From positions 27,070-91,069 of the IMG/VR virus record IMGVR_UViG_3300020394_000267: DNA of 64,000 nt; one strand, written 5' to 3'. The notes beneath the pieces are model-generated. The model worked only from the letters and a program-made list of their open reading frames with translations. It ran no database searches and was not told where the DNA came from. Made by a program: the position numbers and the translations under genes. The DNA comes from a virus. Below, one piece after another: positions 14,918-61,984 of this stretch. Numbering within the stretch: the stretch's first letter is position 1; each line of letters starts with the position of its first letter.

Positions 14918-16033
14918 ATGTGGAACTATGATGATGTTAACTCTATAACCATAGAACTATCTAGTCTATGTAATGCCGCTTGTCCGTGGTGTCCTAGATA
15001 TGAAGATTTTTCTGAGGTAGTTAACAGACAACTAGAACCACAGTATATAACGATTGACCAGTTCAAAGAATGGTTTCCGCCAGACTTTATGTCGAGAATA
15101 AAATTATGGGCATTTACAGGTGATTACGGTGACGCTGGTACTAATCCAGATTTACCAGACATCATAAGGCACATATACAAACATAACCCAGATGCTCAAC
15201 TATCGATGAACACTAACGGTGGTATGAGAACACCAGATTTTTGGGGGTTACTTGGTCAGTTATTTTCTAGGAAGGAACATAACAACATGATATTCTCAAT
15301 AGATGGACTTGAGGATACTAACCACATATACAGGAGAAATGTTAGGTGGAATAAAGTCATGAAAAATGTTCTTGCTTTTCTGGATGCTGGTGGTAAGGCG
15401 ACATGGGAGTGTTTGGTATTCAGACACAACAAACACCAGATAGACGCGATACAAGATTTGGCAAATTACATGGGATTCTCAGAGGTGCATTTTAAAATGC
15501 CAAAGGGATTTGAAAAAGACAATATGAAAGTCAAGGACAAGAAAGGCAATCACACATATACAATATATCCCACCAGCAAAGACCAGATATCAACAGGATA
15601 TCCAGATTTACATGGTAAGAAGGCAGAAGACCTAGACTATGAAGAAATTAGAGATGACATGGAGTCATATTATTCTAATGAACAGGGAGAGATAAAATGT
15701 TTTTCCCAAAGAGATGACTTGACAGAGTTGAAGATTACATCGTGGGGTACAGTGTATCCATGTTGCCATTTTGGGCATATCGCTAAACATCCGCGAGAGA
15801 ATCAACAGTATTACAAAGCTCAACTCATAGATATATTTAAGGATAAAGATATATCTCTCAAGTCAAGAACATTAAAAGAGATATTGGATGATGACCCATT
15901 CAATTGGATTTATAACAGTTGGAAAGAAAAATCATGTCTGGCATGTTGGTCAAATTGTGGAGTGTCAGACAATAAACAACCAGTGATGCAACAGATATTT
16001 AATAAGGAGGGTAAGTTATATGGCACAACATAA
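14918..16033 (+). CDS. Radical SAM protein with C-terminal SPASM/twitch-like Cys
   Basis: CNAACPWC, TNGG, FSIDG, VYPCC, CLACWSNC. Confidence 0.88.
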   Translation: MWNYDDVNSITIELSSLCNAACPWCPRYEDFSEVVNRQLEPQYITIDQFKEWFPPDFMSRIKLWAFTGDYGDAGTNPDLPDIIRHIYKHNPDAQLSMNTNGGMRTPDFWGLLGQLFSRKEHNNMIFSIDGLEDTNHIYRRNVRWNKVMKNVLAFLDAGGKATWECLVFRHNKHQIDAIQDLANYMGFSEVHFKMPKGFEKDNMKVKDKKGNHTYTIYPTSKDQISTGYPDLHGKKAEDLDYEEIRDDMESYYSNEQGEIKCFSQRDDLTELKITSWGTVYPCCHFGHIAKHPRENQQYYKAQLIDIFKDKDISLKSRTLKEILDDDPFNWIYNSWKEKSCLACWSNCGVSDNKQPVMQQIFNKEGKLYGTT

Positions 16034-29416: not shown

Positions 29417-29728
29417 TTACCAGTTGCTTTATACAGATAATGTTCGCTTTTATTATAGGGTATATGATAGGAAAGTATAGTGCGCCCTATAGGTAAGAAA
29501 GGAACGGTGAGCAGTCTAAGTCGCAATGAAACGAAAAAGAACAAAAGACTTGCTAATAAAGGGATTCGCAGACAGGGTAAACGCCAGTCAGAGAGTTCTG
29601 TACTTGAACTGTGGAGGGAAAAAAGTGGGAAATAGTGGTAATCTAAATCCGCGTGAGGGCAGGAGTGAGCGCCGCCGCCCGACTAAAAAATCAGACGCCG
29701 CTGCCGCTCCCAGACGCGGTAAACAGAG

Positions 29729-29757
29729 ATCATACCACAGAGCGGCACTAATGTCAA
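29729..29757 (-). promoter_or_regulatory. Leftward sigma70 promoter TTGACA-N17-TATGAT (extended -10)
   Basis: Reverse complement of ATCATA 29729-29734 and TGTCAA 29752-29757. Confidence 0.7.
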
Positions 29758-29821
29758 GCACTTTCCGCCATGCGTGGTGGCAGTGGCTGTGAAAATAATT
29801 CGTCTTTTTTGAAGAAAACGC

Positions 29822-29850
29822 TTGACAACTGCTGATCTAATGTGTATAAT
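29822..29850 (+). promoter_or_regulatory. Consensus sigma70 promoter TTGACA-N17-TATAAT
   Basis: Exact consensus. Confidence 0.85.
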
Positions 29851-29885
29851 AGGGTGTCGCCTTTAAGAAGAGATATGGCTGCTGC

Positions 29886-29898
29886 TAAGTGATTGATA
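29886..29898 (-). promoter_or_regulatory. IHF binding site TATCAATCACTTA
   Basis: Exact WATCAANNNNTTR match on the minus strand between two promoters. Confidence 0.65.
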
Positions 29899-29927
29899 TA
29901 TAAGGGAAATAAAAGATAAAATAATAC

Positions 29928-29956
29928 TTGACAACTGGTCTCATATGTGAGATCAT
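29928..29956 (+). promoter_or_regulatory. Early promoter TTGACA-N17-GATCAT
   Basis: Same design as 7691, 25948 and 31876. Confidence 0.75.
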
Positions 29957-29962
29957 TATACC

Positions 29963-30400
29963 ATACTGAGAGATGAGGAGATTATATAGTGTTGTGACAA
30001 TAATTTAAACCCCAGTTAAACCGCACCATCTCACCGTGGTTGAGGTTCAAGGAAGAGTGCTATGGGGTCGGAAATGAATCACGGTGCCGAGTCGCAAAGG
30101 TGGCATGACCACGCTCCGATGAGGTAATGACAGGCAGGGCTGGCTGCCATGAACAAGGTGGAGAGACAACTACTAAAGGAGAGTCCCCAGTAGTGGCAAT
30201 GCACAAAGCAGTACCATGAAAAGGACAGGGCGGATGTCAAAGGGTGAGACCCGGCCGCTAACAGGGTTGTGCCTCAATACACACGCGCTCCCCCACGGTT
30301 AGGGGAGCATCACCCAGCAGCAGAGGGGTCAGGCGGGCCTATGCTTTGGGATCGAGGTGGTCGCCCTTACAAGTGCATCTGGCATCCCCCCATATGCATT
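29963..30400 (+). ncRNA. Putative large structured non-coding RNA (family unassigned; ends approximate)
   Basis: GC-rich, no credible ORF, downstream of tandem promoters; helices ACCCCA/TGGGGT, GGCAG/CTGCC, ACTACT/AGTAGT, GGGT/ACCC, GCTCCCC/GGGGAGC. Confidence 0.55.
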
Positions 30401-30462
30401 ACTAAAAAAAGTTTTTGCCCACCCACAGAAACCGCCACAGAATTTTTTTCGGGATATAAATT

Positions 30463-30900
30463 ATGGCAGATATAATTTTTGATGTAGACGGCACTCTTAT
30501 GGATATTACTCATAGGAGGCATTTCGTTGCACAGCGTCCCAAGGACTTTGATTCGTTTCGGAGTCATACTGAATTCGATACCAGAAAGGAAGATATCTTT
30601 GCCATTGCGGATGCGTTACAGTCACAGGGGCATCGTATTCTTATATCTACTGGTAGGAATAAGTCTCAAAGGGATATTACCATTCAACAGATAAGGGATG
30701 GCGGTATAGACTTTGAGCAGATATACATGCGTTCTGATAGTGACTATACACCAGATGATGAGTTAAAGTCACGATTCTTAGACCGTATGATAGATGATGG
30801 TTACAATCCTACTATGGCATTTGATGACCGTCAAAGGGTTGTGGACATGTTTCGTTCACGAGGTTTAACCGTCTTCCAAGTAGCGGAAGGCAATTTTTAA
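30463..30900 (+). CDS. HAD phosphatase (PseT/polynucleotide kinase 3'-phosphatase domain)
   Basis: FDVDGTL, STGR, IYMR, AFDDRQRVVDMFR. Confidence 0.88.
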   Translation: MADIIFDVDGTLMDITHRRHFVAQRPKDFDSFRSHTEFDTRKEDIFAIADALQSQGHRILISTGRNKSQRDITIQQIRDGGIDFEQIYMRSDSDYTPDDELKSRFLDRMIDDGYNPTMAFDDRQRVVDMFRSRGLTVFQVAEGNF

Positions 30901-43638: not shown

Positions 43639-44408
43639 ATGTAGCAATACTTGGTTATGGATTTTGTGGGAAGGCTACTGAGCGTATGCTTAGAACATGT
43701 AAAGAAATAAAACGAATTCAAATTCAAGACCCAAAATATGATAAAAAAATATCACCAGACGAATGGGACTTGATTGACTATGCTTTTGTTTGTGTTCCAA
43801 CACCACTAATACAAAACTACAGTGTAATGGATCATTTTTACAATGGAAATGAGTTTGATATGTCTATTGTCCATAAAGCAATAGAAGATGTACCAGACAG
43901 AACAAGAATAGTTATCCGTAGCACAGTTGGCCCAGATAATTTAGAAAAAGGTTGGATTCACTGGCCTGAATTCTTGCGAGAAAATAATTGGGAAGAGGAT
44001 GCAGATGATAAATCAATTCCTTTTATATTAGGTGTAGACCACGATGATAAAGATGCAATTAATGATTTAGTTTGGTTAATGAAAGACCGAGATGGGGTAC
44101 TTGTTAATCCAAAAGTGGCTGCAACTTATAAGTTGTCTAGGAACGCGATGTTAGCTGCCAAAGTAACCATGGCAAACTACATTCACAAAGTATGCGAAGA
44201 ACAAAATATATCATATGGGTCTGTAGCAGGGTTATTAAAAGACCATGCAAATTTAGGAACATCTCACTGGGATGTGCCAGGCCCCGATGGTCAATATGGT
44301 TTTGGTGGTTCTTGTTTTCCAAAAGACACCACACACTTTGCTTCAATGTTAGGTAATCAAAGTAACATCTTTACTCATGTCTTGAGGTGCAATGAACGAA
44401 GTCGCTAA
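43635..44408 (+). CDS. UDP-glucose/GDP-mannose dehydrogenase family protein (short form)
   Basis: GYGFCG, FVCVPTP, IRSTV, PEFLRE, GFGGSCFPKD. Confidence 0.88.
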   Translation: MNVAILGYGFCGKATERMLRTCKEIKRIQIQDPKYDKKISPDEWDLIDYAFVCVPTPLIQNYSVMDHFYNGNEFDMSIVHKAIEDVPDRTRIVIRSTVGPDNLEKGWIHWPEFLRENNWEEDADDKSIPFILGVDHDDKDAINDLVWLMKDRDGVLVNPKVAATYKLSRNAMLAAKVTMANYIHKVCEEQNISYGSVAGLLKDHANLGTSHWDVPGPDGQYGFGGSCFPKDTTHFASMLGNQSNIFTHVLRCNERSR

Positions 44409-45669
44409 ATACCTAGATGATATTACAAGAAGAAACAACGCAATCGGTAAGGGATTCTGTGTTCTAAAGTGGTGGCATTTAGAAATGCATTTGGGTACAG
44501 GTAATTATCATTCCTGTTTTCATTGTCCACAACAAAATCTTAAACTTGATGAAGATATGCATAATACTCTTCACAAGATGCAACAAAGAAAAACTATGTT
44601 GGAAGGTGGGAGACCAGATGAATGTTCTTATTGTTGGAAGGCAGAAGATGTTGGTGCGGTAAGTCCTAGAACAACCCTTACTCCAATATACACGCAGATG
44701 GAAGAGGATATCATTGAAACCACTGCTAACTTAAAGTGGGATGAATATGTGTATCCAAAGTATTTGGAGATGAGTTTTTCAAATACATGTCAAATGAAAT
44801 GTTCCTATTGCGCTCCGTCTTTGAGTTCTACCTTGTTACAAGAAATTAAAAAGGAAGGTGCGTATCCTCTCGCAGACCCAGAGAATCGTGGACAATATGA
44901 ATTAAATGGAACTGAGGAACTTTATAAGGATGATGATAACCCCTTGTTGGATAAGTTTTGGGATTGGTTTAGTGAGGCAAGAAAACATCTTGATACATTG
45001 AGAATAACAGGCGGAGAACCCTTGTTACATAAAAGTACATTTGATATGATGGATAGATTGCGTGGAGAGTCTATCAACTTTCATATAAACAGTAATTTAT
45101 CAGTATCGAATAGAAGAGTAACAGAAGCATGTAACTTGTTACCAGCGAAGTCTAAAGTGTATGCTAGTGTAGATACATTTGGAAAACAGGCAGAGTGGAT
45201 TAGACACGGACTTAACTGGGATTTATTTGACCAGAATGTTCTTACTGTTATCAATCACAAAATACCATTGAGTTTTATGACAACATTCTGTTTATTAAGT
45301 ATACCTAGATTCAAAGACTTTTTATATTATATCGTACAACTAAAAGATATAGGGGATGTATTGATTGATACACCGTTTATGACAAACCCGCCACATTTGT
45401 CATGTCTTATAATGGATGATGATATGAGAGAAACATTAGAAGATAGTTATCAGTTTATGTCATATAACAGTGAGTTTAACCACGCGGAAGTCGTAAAATT
45501 TGAAAGACTATTGAAATGGGTGGATGCAAATAGGTTCACTGGAGAACGCCTAAATAGTCACAGAAAGGATTTTAAAACATTTGTCGATGAACATGATAGA
45601 CGCAGAGGCACAAATTGGCATGATGCGTTCCCAGAGTTGACATATTTTTATGAGTTATGTGATGCCTGA
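44392..45669 (+). CDS. Radical SAM protein with N-terminal twitch domain (1 of 7)
   Basis: FCVLKW..SCFHC..ECSYCW; CQMKCSYC; TGGEP. Confidence 0.9.
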   Translation: MNEVAKYLDDITRRNNAIGKGFCVLKWWHLEMHLGTGNYHSCFHCPQQNLKLDEDMHNTLHKMQQRKTMLEGGRPDECSYCWKAEDVGAVSPRTTLTPIYTQMEEDIIETTANLKWDEYVYPKYLEMSFSNTCQMKCSYCAPSLSSTLLQEIKKEGAYPLADPENRGQYELNGTEELYKDDDNPLLDKFWDWFSEARKHLDTLRITGGEPLLHKSTFDMMDRLRGESINFHINSNLSVSNRRVTEACNLLPAKSKVYASVDTFGKQAEWIRHGLNWDLFDQNVLTVINHKIPLSFMTTFCLLSIPRFKDFLYYIVQLKDIGDVLIDTPFMTNPPHLSCLIMDDDMRETLEDSYQFMSYNSEFNHAEVVKFERLLKWVDANRFTGERLNSHRKDFKTFVDEHDRRRGTNWHDAFPELTYFYELCDA

Positions 45670-47050
45670 AAACAAACCCAATGAATACTGGATAGAACAG
45701 TTAAAAGAAAAACGAGAAAAGATTAATCAAATTAGTCCTTCTTTTTGTTCTGCTAAATGGTTACAGACTACTCTCTATTTGCAGAATGGGTATAATCACT
45801 CTTGTCACCATCCCTCGCCTCATAAAATACCAGTAAAAGAAGTATTAGAGAATCCAGCAGCTCTTCATAATAGTAATTATAAGAAGCAACAAAGAATCAA
45901 AATGATTAATGGTGAAAGACCCAAAGAGTGTGATTATTGCTGGAGAATAGAAGACCAAGGTAAGGGACACTTTTCTGACCGTCATTATAAAACTGCTGAT
46001 TGGTGGTCATGGGATAAGGTTGATGTTATTGCAACTGATAACCCCACAAAAGATGTCTACCCAACATACCTAGAGGTGTCGTTTTCAAACGCATGTAATT
46101 TCGCGTGTGCATATTGTTCACCAGAAATAAGTTCTGAGTGGATGAAAGATATAGAAAAAAATGGTGACTACCCTGTAGAGTTTGGTTCTGGTAATCTTGA
46201 CTATTTGAGACAAGTAGAAAAGTTTCCATATAAACACTCTGACCCCAATCCATATGTAGATGCATTTTGGAAATGGTTCCCAGAGGCGCTTCCTCATTTG
46301 AGAGTGTTTCGTATTACTGGTGGTGAACCCACTATGAGTAAAGATGTATGGAAGGTATTGGATTACATATATGAAAATGCTCAACCAGAATTGTCTATTG
46401 CAATCAATAGTAATCTTGGTACAACACCAAAATTGATACAGAGACTTGTTGACTCATGTAACAAATTAAGAGACAAAGTTAAACAAATTGAGATATATAC
46501 AAGTGCGGAGGCAATTGGAGAACAGGCAGAATATATAAGAGATGGAATGGATTATGATTATTGGCGTTCTAATGTAGAAAAGGTTTTAACAGAAACAGAC
46601 GCGAATGTAGCAATCATGACTACATTGAACATATTGAGTATGACTACATTTGAAAACTTCATTGAAGACATAATGCAGTTAAGAATCAAGTATAATAAAG
46701 ATTTAGCGAATAATAGAATACCGTTAAGTATAAACTATTTGAGATTCCCCCCTCATTTACAATGTACTCTATTGGATAGAAATACCAGAATATCCTATGC
46801 ATCTGATTATGAACTAATAGCAAAGGTTTGGTTGAAGTACAATTCACCAGACAAGTTCGCAAGAATTTATTTGGAAGAGTATGACCAGATACAAAGGTTC
46901 TGTGAATATCTTAGGCAAGAACACAAAGGTGCTGAAAAATATAGAGCAGACTTTGTAAATTATATAAAAGCCTACGATATCAGAAGGTCGAAAAACTTTA
47001 GCAAAACTTTTCCAGAATATAAACATTTATTGGAGTGGTGGGATGCCTAA
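45650..47050 (+). CDS. Radical SAM protein with N-terminal twitch domain (2 of 7)
   Basis: FCSAKW..SCHHP..ECDYCW; CNFACAYC; TGGEP. Confidence 0.9.
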   Translation: MSYVMPENKPNEYWIEQLKEKREKINQISPSFCSAKWLQTTLYLQNGYNHSCHHPSPHKIPVKEVLENPAALHNSNYKKQQRIKMINGERPKECDYCWRIEDQGKGHFSDRHYKTADWWSWDKVDVIATDNPTKDVYPTYLEVSFSNACNFACAYCSPEISSEWMKDIEKNGDYPVEFGSGNLDYLRQVEKFPYKHSDPNPYVDAFWKWFPEALPHLRVFRITGGEPTMSKDVWKVLDYIYENAQPELSIAINSNLGTTPKLIQRLVDSCNKLRDKVKQIEIYTSAEAIGEQAEYIRDGMDYDYWRSNVEKVLTETDANVAIMTTLNILSMTTFENFIEDIMQLRIKYNKDLANNRIPLSINYLRFPPHLQCTLLDRNTRISYASDYELIAKVWLKYNSPDKFARIYLEEYDQIQRFCEYLRQEHKGAEKYRADFVNYIKAYDIRRSKNFSKTFPEYKHLLEWWDA

Positions 47051-47270
47051 AAAATACATTCATGTAAACATGCACAAAATTCGTGCTAATAAAAAACATG
47101 GGACAAACGAACCTGTTCTTACAGTAAAAGAGGGAAGAAAAAATACTTATGGACATAGTGTAAAGATACATGGCCCGAGTGAAGTAATATATGGTGGCAA
47201 TGATAAACCATTGTTACCCTGTGGGGCAAGAGTTGTTATAATGACAGAAGCGGAGATTGAAATTGAATAA
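47043..47270 (+). CDS. Conserved small phage protein
   Basis: IHVN.HKIRAN.K...KPLLPCGARV motif. Confidence 0.7.
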   Translation: MPKKYIHVNMHKIRANKKHGTNEPVLTVKEGRKNTYGHSVKIHGPSEVIYGGNDKPLLPCGARVVIMTEAEIEIE

Positions 47271-48765
47271 AGAATATGATTTGATAAAGTATCGGAAAGA
47301 CATTCTTGATACTAAGTCGAAGAGTTTTTGTGGTGCGAAATGGTACAACGCTACCACATGGTTAGGTAGTGGTACTACTGCTAGTTGTCATCACCCCCCA
47401 GCACATAAGATTCCGTTACACGAGATTGCAGCTGACCCATCTGCTATTCACAATACGCAACATAAGAAAGCAATGCGTAAGATGATGCAACGCGGAGAAA
47501 GACCGCGTGAGTGTGAGTATTGTTGGAAAGTTGAAGACATGGGCAATGATGCAGTTAGTGACAGAGTTTTTAAATCAATCATATACACCAATGAAGATTT
47601 AAAGAAGGCACACGAAGCAGACTTCAATGATAACACACTATTAAAAACATTTGAGATTGCATTTGACCGAACATGTAACCTTGCTTGTTCTTATTGTAAC
47701 TCAAGTTTCTCTACTACATGGGCAAAGGATATAAAGAAACATGGCCCTTATCAAAACATGGTATCAGATGGTGCGGCCGCCTTCCAACATGACGGTGCGT
47801 GGGCAGACCCATATGGTAAGAAAGAAGAGAATCCATATGTAACTGCTTTCTGGGATTGGTGGGAAGATGGACTATCAGAAAGTCTTGAAGAGTTGAGAGT
47901 TACAGGTGGAGAACCTTTAATGTCTGACCAAGTATGGAAGTTGTTTGATTGGTTTGAGAATAATCCATCTGACATGCGATTTGCAGTAAACTCTAATCTC
48001 ATTGCGAAGGAAAGTATTGTTGATAGATTGATTGAAAAATCAAAAGGGGTTAAGAAGTTTCATCTTTATACTAGTTGCGAGGCAACAGGAAAACAAGCAG
48101 AGTATATAAGAGATGGACTTGATTACGAACTATGGACTAATAATATAACGCGATTTATCAAAGAAGGCAACTATGAGGGCATCAATATAATGATGACTAT
48201 TAATAGTTTGTGTCTGTTTAGTATCACAGACTTCTTAGATGATGTATTCAAACTAAAAGAATTGACAAAAAGTAAGACACCTGTATTTAGTGTTAACTTA
48301 TTGCGATTCCCTAGTTTCCAAAGTCCTCTTGCACTACCAGACCATATTAAAGATTATCTTAGAGAGAATCTATCTAATTGGTATGAAGAAAATAAAGACA
48401 GACAATACTGGCACGATTTTGAAAAAGCAAGTATTGAAAGATTGATAGACTATCTAGTAATTGTTGATGCACCACATAGACGAACCAGTGACAAGATGAC
48501 TTTGTGGAGAGATTTTAAAACCTTCTATGGTCAATATGATGAAAGAAGGGATAAAAGTATTTCTGTGTTTCCAGAAATTCTTACTGATTGGGTAGACACC
48601 CTTCCAGATACAGAAACAAAACCTATTACAGTTATGCCAAGTGGTGACAGTACAGAACAGTACGCGGATGACCCCGACTTGAAAAAGATTGCTGAAGAAG
48701 AAGGTTGGGTATTGAAACCAGACAATAAAAACATCGACAAACCATTAGGAGATTACGACAAATGA
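47257..48765 (+). CDS. Radical SAM protein with N-terminal twitch domain (3 of 7)
   Basis: FCGAKW..SCHHP..ECEYCW; CNLACSYC; TGGEP. Confidence 0.9.
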   Translation: MKLNKEYDLIKYRKDILDTKSKSFCGAKWYNATTWLGSGTTASCHHPPAHKIPLHEIAADPSAIHNTQHKKAMRKMMQRGERPRECEYCWKVEDMGNDAVSDRVFKSIIYTNEDLKKAHEADFNDNTLLKTFEIAFDRTCNLACSYCNSSFSTTWAKDIKKHGPYQNMVSDGAAAFQHDGAWADPYGKKEENPYVTAFWDWWEDGLSESLEELRVTGGEPLMSDQVWKLFDWFENNPSDMRFAVNSNLIAKESIVDRLIEKSKGVKKFHLYTSCEATGKQAEYIRDGLDYELWTNNITRFIKEGNYEGINIMMTINSLCLFSITDFLDDVFKLKELTKSKTPVFSVNLLRFPSFQSPLALPDHIKDYLRENLSNWYEENKDRQYWHDFEKASIERLIDYLVIVDAPHRRTSDKMTLWRDFKTFYGQYDERRDKSISVFPEILTDWVDTLPDTETKPITVMPSGDSTEQYADDPDLKKIAEEEGWVLKPDNKNIDKPLGDYDK

Positions 48766-59726: not shown

Positions 59727-60588
59727 ATTAGTTGGATACGGTTGTTCTTTTACTGCTGGTGCGGAATTAGCAGACCATGATATGTTGGGATGTGACATAG
59801 AGACAGTCGATAACTTAAAAAGACAAGGATTGGTTTGGGATGAAATATGGAAAAAGTTGGGTCACGATGTTGACCCCTTTGCCGATTTTCACGATTTATT
59901 TAGAACCGTCAAACTTGAAGAGATTCCCAATTTAAAAGAAGGGGAAGATATTTGTAGGTCAAGAAGTTGGGTTAGATACCTCGCGGAACTTAGGGGACAT
60001 GATAGATACAAAAATCATGCACAGGGAGGCACCAGTTTAACAACAGTAATATATTTCTTAGAAACTGATATTATTAATGGATGGGTTAATCCAGAGGAAG
60101 ATGAAATTATTGTACAGGTTCCACACATATACAGATGGATGACATTTGATATAGATGGTAATTTTAGTCCAATCAGACCAGAAAATATATTTGAATCTAT
60201 GATAAAATTTAAACAGGAACATGACAATAACTTCATGGCAAGTGAAAGTGCTTATCTTGTTAATGAAATGAATTATTGGAATTTAACTTGGAGATACTAC
60301 CAACAATTAAAACATTTACATAACATAGGTGTTAAATTCTTTTTTATAGAGTCACCGCCACTAAGAATGAGAGACCAAGTAGTAAGTGATGTTGATATAT
60401 CACAGAAGGCACATGAATATGTAAGAGAAGATTTTGAAAAGTATTGGAATTGGATTGATAGTAATGCAATAGATACGAAACCAGTTTGGCAAAATTGGAC
60501 TCGTTCTAAAAGACATGGAAACAATCATTACTTTGAAAGAACACAAATTGATATTGCGAGATATTTAAATGATAAGTTGGGGAATTAG
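59719..60588 (+). CDS. SGNH-hydrolase-like protein
   Basis: GYGCSFTAG, NHAQGGTS, C-terminal NNHY. Confidence 0.6.
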   Translation: MTRLVGYGCSFTAGAELADHDMLGCDIETVDNLKRQGLVWDEIWKKLGHDVDPFADFHDLFRTVKLEEIPNLKEGEDICRSRSWVRYLAELRGHDRYKNHAQGGTSLTTVIYFLETDIINGWVNPEEDEIIVQVPHIYRWMTFDIDGNFSPIRPENIFESMIKFKQEHDNNFMASESAYLVNEMNYWNLTWRYYQQLKHLHNIGVKFFFIESPPLRMRDQVVSDVDISQKAHEYVREDFEKYWNWIDSNAIDTKPVWQNWTRSKRHGNNHYFERTQIDIARYLNDKLGN

Positions 60589-61984
60589 TGCTTGTACACA
60601 TGACGCTTCTTTAGCGGTTGTTAGAGATGATGAGATATTGTTTGCCTCTCATAGTGAGAGATTTAGCGGTATAAAAAATGACGCATTTCTCAATCCAGAA
60701 ATTATCATGGAAGCGAAAAAATATGGTGAACCAGATTTTGTTTATTGGTACGAAAATCCTTGGTTAAAATGGACAAGGAAAAAATACGCGAAACAACAAA
60801 GACCTTGGTTAAGTCCTAAGAAATACTTAAAACACTTTGGAGTCAAGGCGCCTTATTATACCACGCACCACAAATCACATGCGGCTGCTGGGTACTACAC
60901 TTCACCATTTAAAAGTTCTGCTATATTAGTTATTGATGCTATTGGAGAGTGGACTACTACATCTATATGGAAGGACATGAAGTGTATTTGGACTTCTAGG
61001 TATCCTAATTCATTGGGATTGTTCTATTCCGCGATGACAGATAGAATTGGACTGAAGGCAAATGAAGATGAGTATATTCTTATGGGTATGGCTGCATATG
61101 GTGACCCAAATAGATTTCATCGTGATATTAAACGATTACTAAAAGAAAACTTGCATAGAGGGTGTAGATGGTGGAACCCAGATTTAAAAGAAGAGGATTA
61201 TTTTGATGTCGCAGCTGCTACACAAAAAATTTATGAATGGGAGTTTAGAAAATTATTGTTTACAACTGCAAGATTAACAGATGAAACTAATTTAGTTTTC
61301 ATGGGTGGATGTGCCTTAAATTGTTTGGCGAATAGATTTATTCCAGAATATTTTTCTAATCATTGGATTATGCCCAATCCAGGCGATGCTGGTTCTTCTA
61401 TTGGTGCGATTGCAGCTAGGGAACACAAAAAGTTGAAATGGAAAACACCTTACCTTGGATATAACATAGAGGGTACATATCCAACCAATGACCTATTATC
61501 AAATCTAAATGCACTTAAAATAGTTGGTGTTGCAAATGGTAGGGCAGAGTTTGGGCCAAGAGCATTGGGGAATAGAAGTTTACTCGCAGACCCAAAAGGT
61601 TCAGAGATGAAAGATGTTGTTAATAAGATTAAAAAGAGACAGGAGTTTAGACCCTTTGCACCAGTTATACTAGAGTCAGAAGTACACAAGTATTTTGATG
61701 TACCAGAAGGATTCCAATCACCGTACATGCAACATGTCGTTAAATGTAAAGAACCAGAACTGTTTCCCGCCATAGTACACAAAGATGGAACCAGTAGAGT
61801 CCAGACTGTTAATGACGAACAACACAGCGGATTATCTCAGTTATTAAGGAGATGGAAAACACATAGTGGACATCCTATCCTTCTAAATACTAGTTTGAAC
61901 ATCAAGGGCGAACCAATCGTCAATGATGAAAAAGATGCAGCTAGGTTTGAAAAGAAGTATGGAGTTAAAGTGTGCGTGAGATAA
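60569..61984 (+). CDS. O-carbamoyltransferase (NodU/CmcH family)
   Basis: HDAS, ERFSGIKND, HHKSHAAAG, GGCALNC, EFGPRALGNRS, FRPFAP, LNTSLN. Confidence 0.93.
   Translation: MISWGISACTHDASLAVVRDDEILFASHSERFSGIKNDAFLNPEIIMEAKKYGEPDFVYWYENPWLKWTRKKYAKQQRPWLSPKKYLKHFGVKAPYYTTHHKSHAAAGYYTSPFKSSAILVIDAIGEWTTTSIWKDMKCIWTSRYPNSLGLFYSAMTDRIGLKANEDEYILMGMAAYGDPNRFHRDIKRLLKENLHRGCRWWNPDLKEEDYFDVAAATQKIYEWEFRKLLFTTARLTDETNLVFMGGCALNCLANRFIPEYFSNHWIMPNPGDAGSSIGAIAAREHKKLKWKTPYLGYNIEGTYPTNDLLSNLNALKIVGVANGRAEFGPRALGNRSLLADPKGSEMKDVVNKIKKRQEFRPFAPVILESEVHKYFDVPEGFQSPYMQHVVKCKEPELFPAIVHKDGTSRVQTVNDEQHSGLSQLLRRWKTHSGHPILLNTSLNIKGEPIVNDEKDAARFEKKYGVKVCVR

Follow-up and report, generated by a model that had tools for sequence, protein, structure and literature searches.

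The region described here lies in a 64,000-nt stretch of DNA, hereafter the window, which belongs to a 91-kb virus fragment of the IMG/VR collection. Two early promoters on its plus strand point into a GC-rich interval of about 440 nt, followed by a conserved spacer and a phosphatase-domain gene. The features outside the RNA fold are:

29822..29850, plus strand: upstream early promoter, TTGACA-17-TATAAT, matching the consensus at 12 of 12 positions
29875-29892, plus strand: remnant 5-codon cistron ATG GCT GCT GCT AAG TGA behind the first promoter
29928..29956, plus strand: proximal early promoter, TTGACA-17-GATCAT with TG extension, matching at 10 of 12 positions
29975-29980, plus strand: Shine–Dalgarno sequence GAGGAG, with the mini-ORF 8 nt later
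29989-29997, plus strand: mini-ORF GTG TTG TGA with a C after the stop, ending 11 nt before helix P1 and with a start-to-P1 distance of 20 nt
30401..30462, plus strand: conserved spacer with A-run and U-run, GCCCA...CAGAA...TTTTT, before the next gene
30463..30900, plus strand: gene for the HAD phosphatase domain of polynucleotide kinase-phosphatase, the downstream neighbour

Both promoters had been named in the original prediction and both stand. The one at 29822 is conserved in four relatives (L002, L003, L004 and L022); it drives the remnant cistron and then reads on into the RNA. Since L003 and L004 carry a 19-codon ORF at the site of this remnant, the first promoter cassette appears almost empty in the window. 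TTGACA and a TG-extended −10 element at an equal distance are present in nearly all members of the RNA family that have upstream sequence, and a sigma70-type early promoter directly 5′ of the RNA, a trait by which the family is recognized, is found in the window as well. The spacer at 30401-30462 is kept in groups A and C of the family and partly in group B, ahead of differing genes, and the 3′ end of the RNA is predicted to lie close to it; in the window, the interval from the RNA to the following gene yielded no canonical terminator. The phosphatase gene is not a constant partner, and other groups carry different, unrelated downstream genes. Further upstream, a block at 29594-29800 is GC-rich (up to 53%) and contains a conserved leftward promoter (TTGACA-17-TG-TATGAT, 29757-29729); its 88-aa plus-strand frame has no family match. 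As this block is nearly invariant among relatives and shows no covariation, we give no verdict on its structure.

The GC content is 0.52-0.59 over 30000-30400 and 0.35-0.43 in the flanks, i.e. around 40%, in line with the enrichment that had been predicted. Neither strand of 29963-30460 contains an ORF of more than 68 aa, and the 68-aa frame in the RNA region matches neither Pfam nor PHROG, which bears out the earlier view that no credible ORF is present. The homologues of the RNA differ by 1-nt indels, and this counts against coding. It had also been stated that the sequence resembles no recognized family, and indeed the RNA region has no match in Rfam 15, riboswitches and ribozymes included, at the gathering score or at E<=10; searches with 13 homologous loci gave no match either. 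The comparison took in GOLLD, ROOL, tmRNA, RNase P, group I and II introns, riboswitches and ribozymes, and the best chance matches reached 9-18 bits. ARAGORN found no tRNA or tmRNA gene in the window. A divergent RNase P RNA (GGAGAGUCC, AAAGGGUGAGACCC) was considered and dropped, with no P4-type pairing and no model match, and HDV-like, twister and pistol topologies did not fit when compared by eye. The present family may be among the 10,006 candidate viral structured RNAs reported previously (PMC10690425). The folding energy of the single sequence is no better than that of shuffled sequences (z = +0.26 for the plus strand and −0.24 for the minus strand), so the evidence for structure is comparative and not thermodynamic.

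Simple pattern scans brought together about 60 distinct homologous versions from viral and marine metagenome contigs. With the downstream protein as query, three contigs with the same RNA were retrieved, together with the closest relative (L002), which has its last ~135 nt only. A pattern of invariant words of the 5′ domain (TAAACCCCA..ACCG..GGGGTCGGA) gave 40 metagenome contigs, many from Tara Oceans and all true homologues, and a second pattern, taken from the inner conserved block, gave 39 more distinct 5′ domains in viral contigs. A viral scan for the second pseudoknot domain returned four true matches only, all of which already had the 5′ unit. Two exact patterns had no match in 185,579 cellular genomes, and the RNAs of groups A, F and D, searched at blastn sensitivity, had none among the 50,697 phage records of the INPHARED cultured phages. 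A covariance model of the 5′ domain (R1) run on 69 loci found, besides the window (75.7 bits), only chance-word loci at 13-24 bits that look coding-like by eye. The RNA belongs to a large family absent from Rfam 15; covarying homologues, which the original prediction had proposed to look for, do exist in viral and marine metagenome contigs, and their covariation is heavy.

The family comprises at least seven groups (A-G). Because the window RNA is a member of group A but shows 88% identity to group B over the first ~170 nt, we consider it a recombinant. Groups E and F have their own promoter, end in intrinsic terminators and lie about 1.2 kb upstream of uvsX, and in groups D-F a late-promoter-like TATAAAT is found 3′ of the RNA. 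The fold that defines the family, namely P1, P2 and P3 with the P3 loop pairing 10-16 nt 3′ of P1, occupies 30009-30084 in the window. The elements of the complete RNA are:

30009..30084, plus strand: 5′ pseudoknot domain, about 80 nt, H-type
30009-13/30064-68, plus strand: P1, covarying in the wider family (4 pairs)
30023-26/30057-60, plus strand: P2
30029-33/30041-45, plus strand: P3
30034-40 with 30078-84, plus strand: PK-I, formed by the P3 loop; 8 of 8 pairs covary in the wider family
30091..30163, plus strand: second pseudoknot domain
30091-94/30117-20, plus strand: H4′, covarying and enclosing H5
30100-03/30109-12, plus strand: H5
30114-16/30161-63, plus strand: H6, crossing H4′ to give PK-II; U-A is changed to C-G in group C
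30133-37/30144-48, plus strand: H7 hairpin between the H6 strands, covarying
30183..30308, plus strand: hairpin series H8-H11, each with one or more pairs changed on both sides
30183-86/30223-26, plus strand: H8, around a variable insert
30229-33/30255-59, plus strand: H9
30268-71/30280-83, plus strand: H10
30287-93/30302-08, plus strand: H11, two pairs changed in L002
30266..30400, plus strand: 3′ domain, closed by GCC-U-AUGC 30337-44/GCAU-CU-GGC 30375-83, then AUCCCCCC

In group A (8 sequences) 99.6% of the cells of the 68-pair model are paired, and 13 pairs are changed on both sides; shuffles gave 6.8±1.3 (0/500) and slid controls gave 0-3. The helices shared by groups A-C (14 sequences) contain 12 pairs changed on both sides, with a covariation score of 0.310 versus 0.135, and in the wider family (39 sequences) 134 cells are changed on both sides versus 50±7 (0/500). 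P1 alone occurs in this 39-sequence set as ACCCC/GGGGU, AUCCC/GGGAU, GGAC/GUCC, CGUC/GACG, CACC/GGUG and others. Group D has five covarying versions of H4′, and in place of the CUC/GAG of the window's H6 it has the complementary segments UUCCCC, in the enclosed loop, and GGGGAA, downstream. The closing pairing of the 3′ domain shows G-C to G-U changes only, which are compatible with it and do not prove it by covariation; a tertiary pairing between 30273-77 and 30346-50 is possible. A three-way junction was seen, by eye, in group F only. About 25 nucleotides of the 5′ unit are invariant, and they cluster in the junctions of the pseudoknotted fold; the family junctions read UAA before P1, an A-rich J1/2 and CUA before the 3′ strand of P1. 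Selection acts on RNA pairing, the two pseudoknots included. Five of the six helices originally proposed are conserved and covarying: ACCCC/GGGGT (30009/30064), GCAC/GTGC, GGCAG/CTGCC (30133/30144), GCGG/CCGC (30230/30255) and GCTCCCC/GGGGAGC (30287/30302). The sixth, ACTACT/AGTAGT (30169/30189), can be drawn in the window, but it falls partly inside the variable insert and partly next to it, and the relatives have not retained it.

A further trait of the family is found in front of P1. A canonical Shine–Dalgarno sequence 4-10 nt before a start codon, then zero to three sense codons and a stop before P1, is present in 40 of the 58 unique upstream regions compared with 2% of random sites from the same loci. 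The remaining regions mostly have a mini-ORF too, with a looser purine tract instead of the Shine–Dalgarno sequence, as judged by eye. Counted from the start, P1 lies at 20 nt in 24 cases and at 17 nt in 8, the window start falling within the 17-20 nt typical of the family, and 11 nt separate the stop from P1 in 30 of the 40. Most of the stops are UGA with C as the next base; UGA-C is a slow-terminating context in E. coli. In contrast to this fixed geometry the sense codon varies freely (AGU, UUG, GCA, GAU, ACG, AAU-UUG or none). The mini-ORF is a conserved and positioned part of the 5′ unit that defines the family. It had been noticed earlier that AGGAG is followed only by GTG-TTG-TGA, and this description of the sequence is correct, but its dismissal does not survive the comparison across the family. 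Judging from known ribosome footprints, at such a spacing the leading edge of the ribosome would reach P1 with no need to melt it.

The closest relative shows how the locus is assembled. L002 has the promoter and leader and the 3′ domain as in the window, and in place of 29940-30265, the slot of the 5′ and central domains of the RNA, it carries a 142-aa ORF (L002:2315-2743) that has no PHROG match and does not evidently resemble the RNA region. Between this ORF and the shared 3′ domain stands a long hairpin (ACUACUCGACUC...GAGUCGAGUAG), and no copy of the 5′ domain was found anywhere in the 161 kb of this relative. As L002 is 91% complete and lacks both the 5′ and the central domains, the RNA is an optional cassette with an accessory function. 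In five other members (L223, L176, L204, L216 and L239) the 5′ unit and a short second domain are followed by protein genes with their own Shine–Dalgarno sequence and with no terminator between the 5′ unit and the protein gene. Different RNA modules follow the 5′ unit across groups A-F, and 36 viral contigs contain the 3′ module of groups D and E, in most cases with no 5′ unit.

The RNA is assembled, mosaic-like, from portable modules that recombine between phages: Shine–Dalgarno sequence and mini-ORF, 5′ pseudoknot domain, second pseudoknot domain, hairpins H8-H11 and 3′ domain. The unit of mini-ORF and PK-I defines the family and is itself portable. The original prediction of a large phage ncRNA is borne out in so far as the region is promoter-driven, non-coding and structured, but it is not one indivisible RNA. 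The two pseudoknots, the modular mosaic, the mini-ORF trait, the position of the 5′ unit before protein genes and the optional nature of the element all go beyond that first reading.

The group D/E 3′ module (GAGAGGG-YCAUUAAGGUUGGUUGGCCCACAGUGAAAGUUC...GUGUGGGG...CCCUCUC) was seen at L065:560-660 on the minus strand, in L147, L158, L135 and L137 and at some 30 further viral loci; it can also follow a promoter by itself, or come after a 5′ RNA of another type. Rfam had no match on four loci containing it. At L135:~230-330, and in L137, L128 and L129, the same D/E-type 3′ module is joined to a further structured 5′ RNA (GAGAGACUUCUGGAGAUGGAUACGCCAUCUAGGUCAUGUGACACUGUUAGUCUCUUAGGAG), which is driven by a promoter and bears no relation to the 5′ domain of the window.

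Contigs from the RNA libraries of two marine studies contain the RNA, in one run at a word depth of 65-115. One of these contigs spans 30302-30577, and another runs uncut from the leader into the 5′ domain (29861-30172). Such contigs show neither ends nor levels, and we regard them as a weak hint of expression. The end of the latter at 29861 is close to the start expected from the 29822 promoter, but as contigs cannot show ends this was not counted; for the same kind of reason the missing contig cover over the 3′ domain and flanks in run X15 was not taken as evidence, as contigs cannot show absence.

The closest relative encodes a T4 gp23 capsid protein (E 3e-142), and these phages are therefore T4-like myoviruses. 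A glutamine riboswitch (RF01739; 35056-35119, minus strand; 60 bits against a gathering score of 35) lies upstream of small ORFs elsewhere in the window and suggests a cyanobacterial host; the host is probably a cyanobacterium or other marine bacterium. The window also contains ribonucleotide reductase, thymidylate synthase and primase genes. The large subunit of the reductase is closest to that of an Alcaligenes phage (61.5%), followed by pelagiphages (~55%), and not to cyanophages. Several proteins with radical-SAM domains are encoded at 14918-16033 and 44392-48765, and a Nol-like carbamoyltransferase gene is found at 60569-61984.

Among known systems, GOLLD (RF01998), ROOL (RF03087), OLE and raiA are also several hundred nucleotides long with many covarying helices and pseudoknots, and are likewise phage-borne, of unknown function and variable in their peripheral domains, those RNAs being highly expressed (PMC12286853, PMC12968392). 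The phage RNA described here has neither sequence nor covariance-model similarity to them, is smaller, and differs in the conserved Shine–Dalgarno sequence and mini-ORF in front and in its mosaic of portable modules. A strong Shine–Dalgarno sequence near the 5′ end from which no real protein is made is shared with the cryIIIA STAB-SD, hbs and the ermC leader (PMC3997798, PMC5737220). An element of this kind, near the 5′ end and serving no real gene, is present in the window; the STAB-SD type blocks 5′-end-dependent decay downstream, and by analogy the same effect is proposed here. Compared with the STAB-SD type, a start and a stop codon are added here, a pseudoknot follows the stop at 11 nt, the cargo in many cases codes for no protein, and the host is probably a cyanobacterium or other marine bacterium instead of a Gram-positive one. 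The mobile promoter cassettes of T4-type phages known as PeSL end in a Shine–Dalgarno sequence and start codon (PMC4122927), and their sigma70-type early promoter, Shine–Dalgarno sequence and start bound swappable cassettes in hyperplastic regions, much as here (PMC2839356, PMC4122927). By the published definition (PMC4122927) the window has the early promoter and, at the 3′ edge of the cassette, the Shine–Dalgarno sequence and start, and comparison with L002 shows content replaced between close relatives with breakpoints in conserved flanks. No terminator-like stem-loop was found before 29822 or 29928 on the plus strand; there are A-run/U-run motifs only, 3′ of the RNA. PeSL cassettes are described as flanking small protein genes, whereas the cassette here contains a structured RNA and a stop follows the start almost immediately. 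The Shine–Dalgarno sequence and start could be retained through PeSL recombination alone, and the early stop could do no more than block translation into the RNA.

Two more distant parallels concern the 5′ unit. The flavivirus xrRNA is a domain closed by P1 in which a hairpin loop base-pairs immediately 3′ of P1; the present 5′ domain has the same loop-to-3′-tail pseudoknot topology and lies at the 5′ side of the RNA that it is proposed to shield. The likeness is one of topology only, the window version having no three-way junction and no sequence similarity. Phage lambda bar minigenes and bacterial start-stop mini-ORFs consist of two or three codons behind a good Shine–Dalgarno sequence, and the bar effect needs a specific tRNA. 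A two- or three-codon ORF with a good Shine–Dalgarno sequence on a phage transcript is common to both cases; here, by contrast, the choice of sense codon is free and the ORF comes coupled to a pseudoknot.

We conclude that the stretch encodes an untranslated early transcript of about 440 nt of an uncultured marine T4-like phage. We tentatively favor a model in which the 5′ unit is a cis-acting guard of the 5′ end that works through a parked ribosome, so that the cargo accumulates as a trans-acting part. A ribosome would load at the Shine–Dalgarno sequence, meet the stop after one or two codons and come to rest where its leading edge abuts P1. A ribosome parked there, together with the knot, might then shield the 5′ end from 5′-end-dependent RNases (RNase J or RNase E), and the untranslated cargo would survive and build up early in infection. 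Ribosomes that initiate where the Shine–Dalgarno sequence is strong are known to block RNase J1 (PMC5737220; reviewed in PMC3997798), and ribosomes at such sites protect the hbs and cryIIIA mRNAs (PMC5737220, PMC3997798). The role in trans would fall to the cargo (30091-30400), which would most likely bind protein as a scaffold or decoy in host takeover. Against this guard model stand the chance, noted above, that cassette recombination accounts for the Shine–Dalgarno sequence and start, the ~25 invariant nucleotides, which are not obviously needed by a simple 5′ guard, and the absence of the 5′ and central domains from the closest relative. That the Shine–Dalgarno sequence, start-stop mini-ORF and pseudoknot constitute a new phage 5′ leader device and the 300-nt cargo a new trans-acting takeover RNA is a more speculative proposition, which we hold to be rather doubtful as a whole.

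Other phages have protein genes behind the 5′ unit, so a leader function in cis has the same likelihood as an exclusively trans-acting one. In its full form this explanation is a cis-regulatory early leader, with the downstream genes controlled by the 5′ pseudoknot unit, either by itself or together with the other domains; we think it unlikely. The 440 nt would be the 5′ UTR of the phosphatase gene, acting as a riboswitch, by translational control or as a processive antiterminator modifying RNA polymerase; the put RNA of phage HK022 is a processive antiterminator that acts on RNA polymerase. The 5′ unit always lies just 3′ of an early promoter, several phages have it directly before a protein gene with no terminator between, the window has no canonical terminator after the RNA, an RNA-library contig bridges 30302-30577, and a conserved machine or a ligand could well bind at the invariant nucleotides of the junctions. 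Against such a leader stand the intrinsic terminators that end the group E and F RNAs, the TATAAAT motif after those of groups D-F and the unrelated downstream genes; moreover, Rfam gave no riboswitch or leader match, and a Shine–Dalgarno sequence and mini-ORF before an aptamer corresponds to no known riboswitch layout. The same position before ordinary protein genes fits a cis role better than the idea, quite unlikely in our opinion, of a trans-acting RNA with the 5′ domain as its business end, which would dock on a universally conserved machine, most plausibly a ribosome recruited by its own Shine–Dalgarno sequence and mini-ORF, and sequester or reprogram it in takeover, the variable domains being lineage-specific add-ons. 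Even very divergent phages keep the 5′ core and exchange the remaining parts, the spacing from start to P1 is fixed at 17 or 20 nt, and the strong early promoter and the high word depth in RNA-library contigs are consistent with this idea; the phage itself, however, needs ribosomes.

The gathering of invariant nucleotides in the junctions of a pseudoknotted fold could also be that of a catalytic core at P1, for example of a ribozyme that removes the leader with the Shine–Dalgarno sequence and mini-ORF by self-cleavage and leaves a 5′-OH. DNA of phages and of marine metagenomes commonly encodes self-cleaving ribozymes, which would favor this explanation, but no Rfam 15 ribozyme model matches even at E<=10, an RNA-library contig passes uncut from the leader into the domain (29861-30172), and in our reading the topology is unlike HDV-like, twister, pistol and hatchet ribozymes; we consider it improbable. 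The T4 origins oriF and oriG are used through promoter-driven transcripts that form an R-loop, and a replication origin or primer RNA of this type, of which the primer was named in the original prediction, could account for the divergent promoters nearby (the leftward one at 29757-29729), the locally GC-rich composition and the location of groups E and F ~1.2 kb upstream of uvsX. A T4-type R-loop origin keeps a stable position and needs no conserved fold, whereas here selection is on intramolecular RNA pairing with two pseudoknots, and the element is absent from the 91%-complete closest relative and moves between unrelated genomic contexts, so that this role is very improbable. The 142-aa ORF at the same place in L002, behind the same promoter, might finally suggest that the window RNA is a decayed protein gene or non-functional spacer. 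With no evident similarity between that ORF and the RNA region, about 68 base pairs preserved by compensatory changes and more than 60 distinct family members, covariation refutes this reading and we give it hardly any credence.

The RNA family described here is new, and so is the kind of 5′ unit that it carries. The T4-like phages that infect marine bacteria rank with the ocean's most abundant viruses, and this family is widespread in sequence and strongly constrained (two pseudoknots, ~68 conserved pairs) while absent from Rfam and from the searched records of cultured phages. If the guard model is true, these phages would use a leader device that parks a ribosome against a knot in order to protect, time or deliver the RNA or mRNA that follows. 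A tiny ORF and a pseudoknot at fixed spacing provide a concrete hypothesis which may explain how the untranslated RNAs of phages are kept stable. The mosaic build of the family indicates that structured RNA modules are shuffled between phages as protein genes are.
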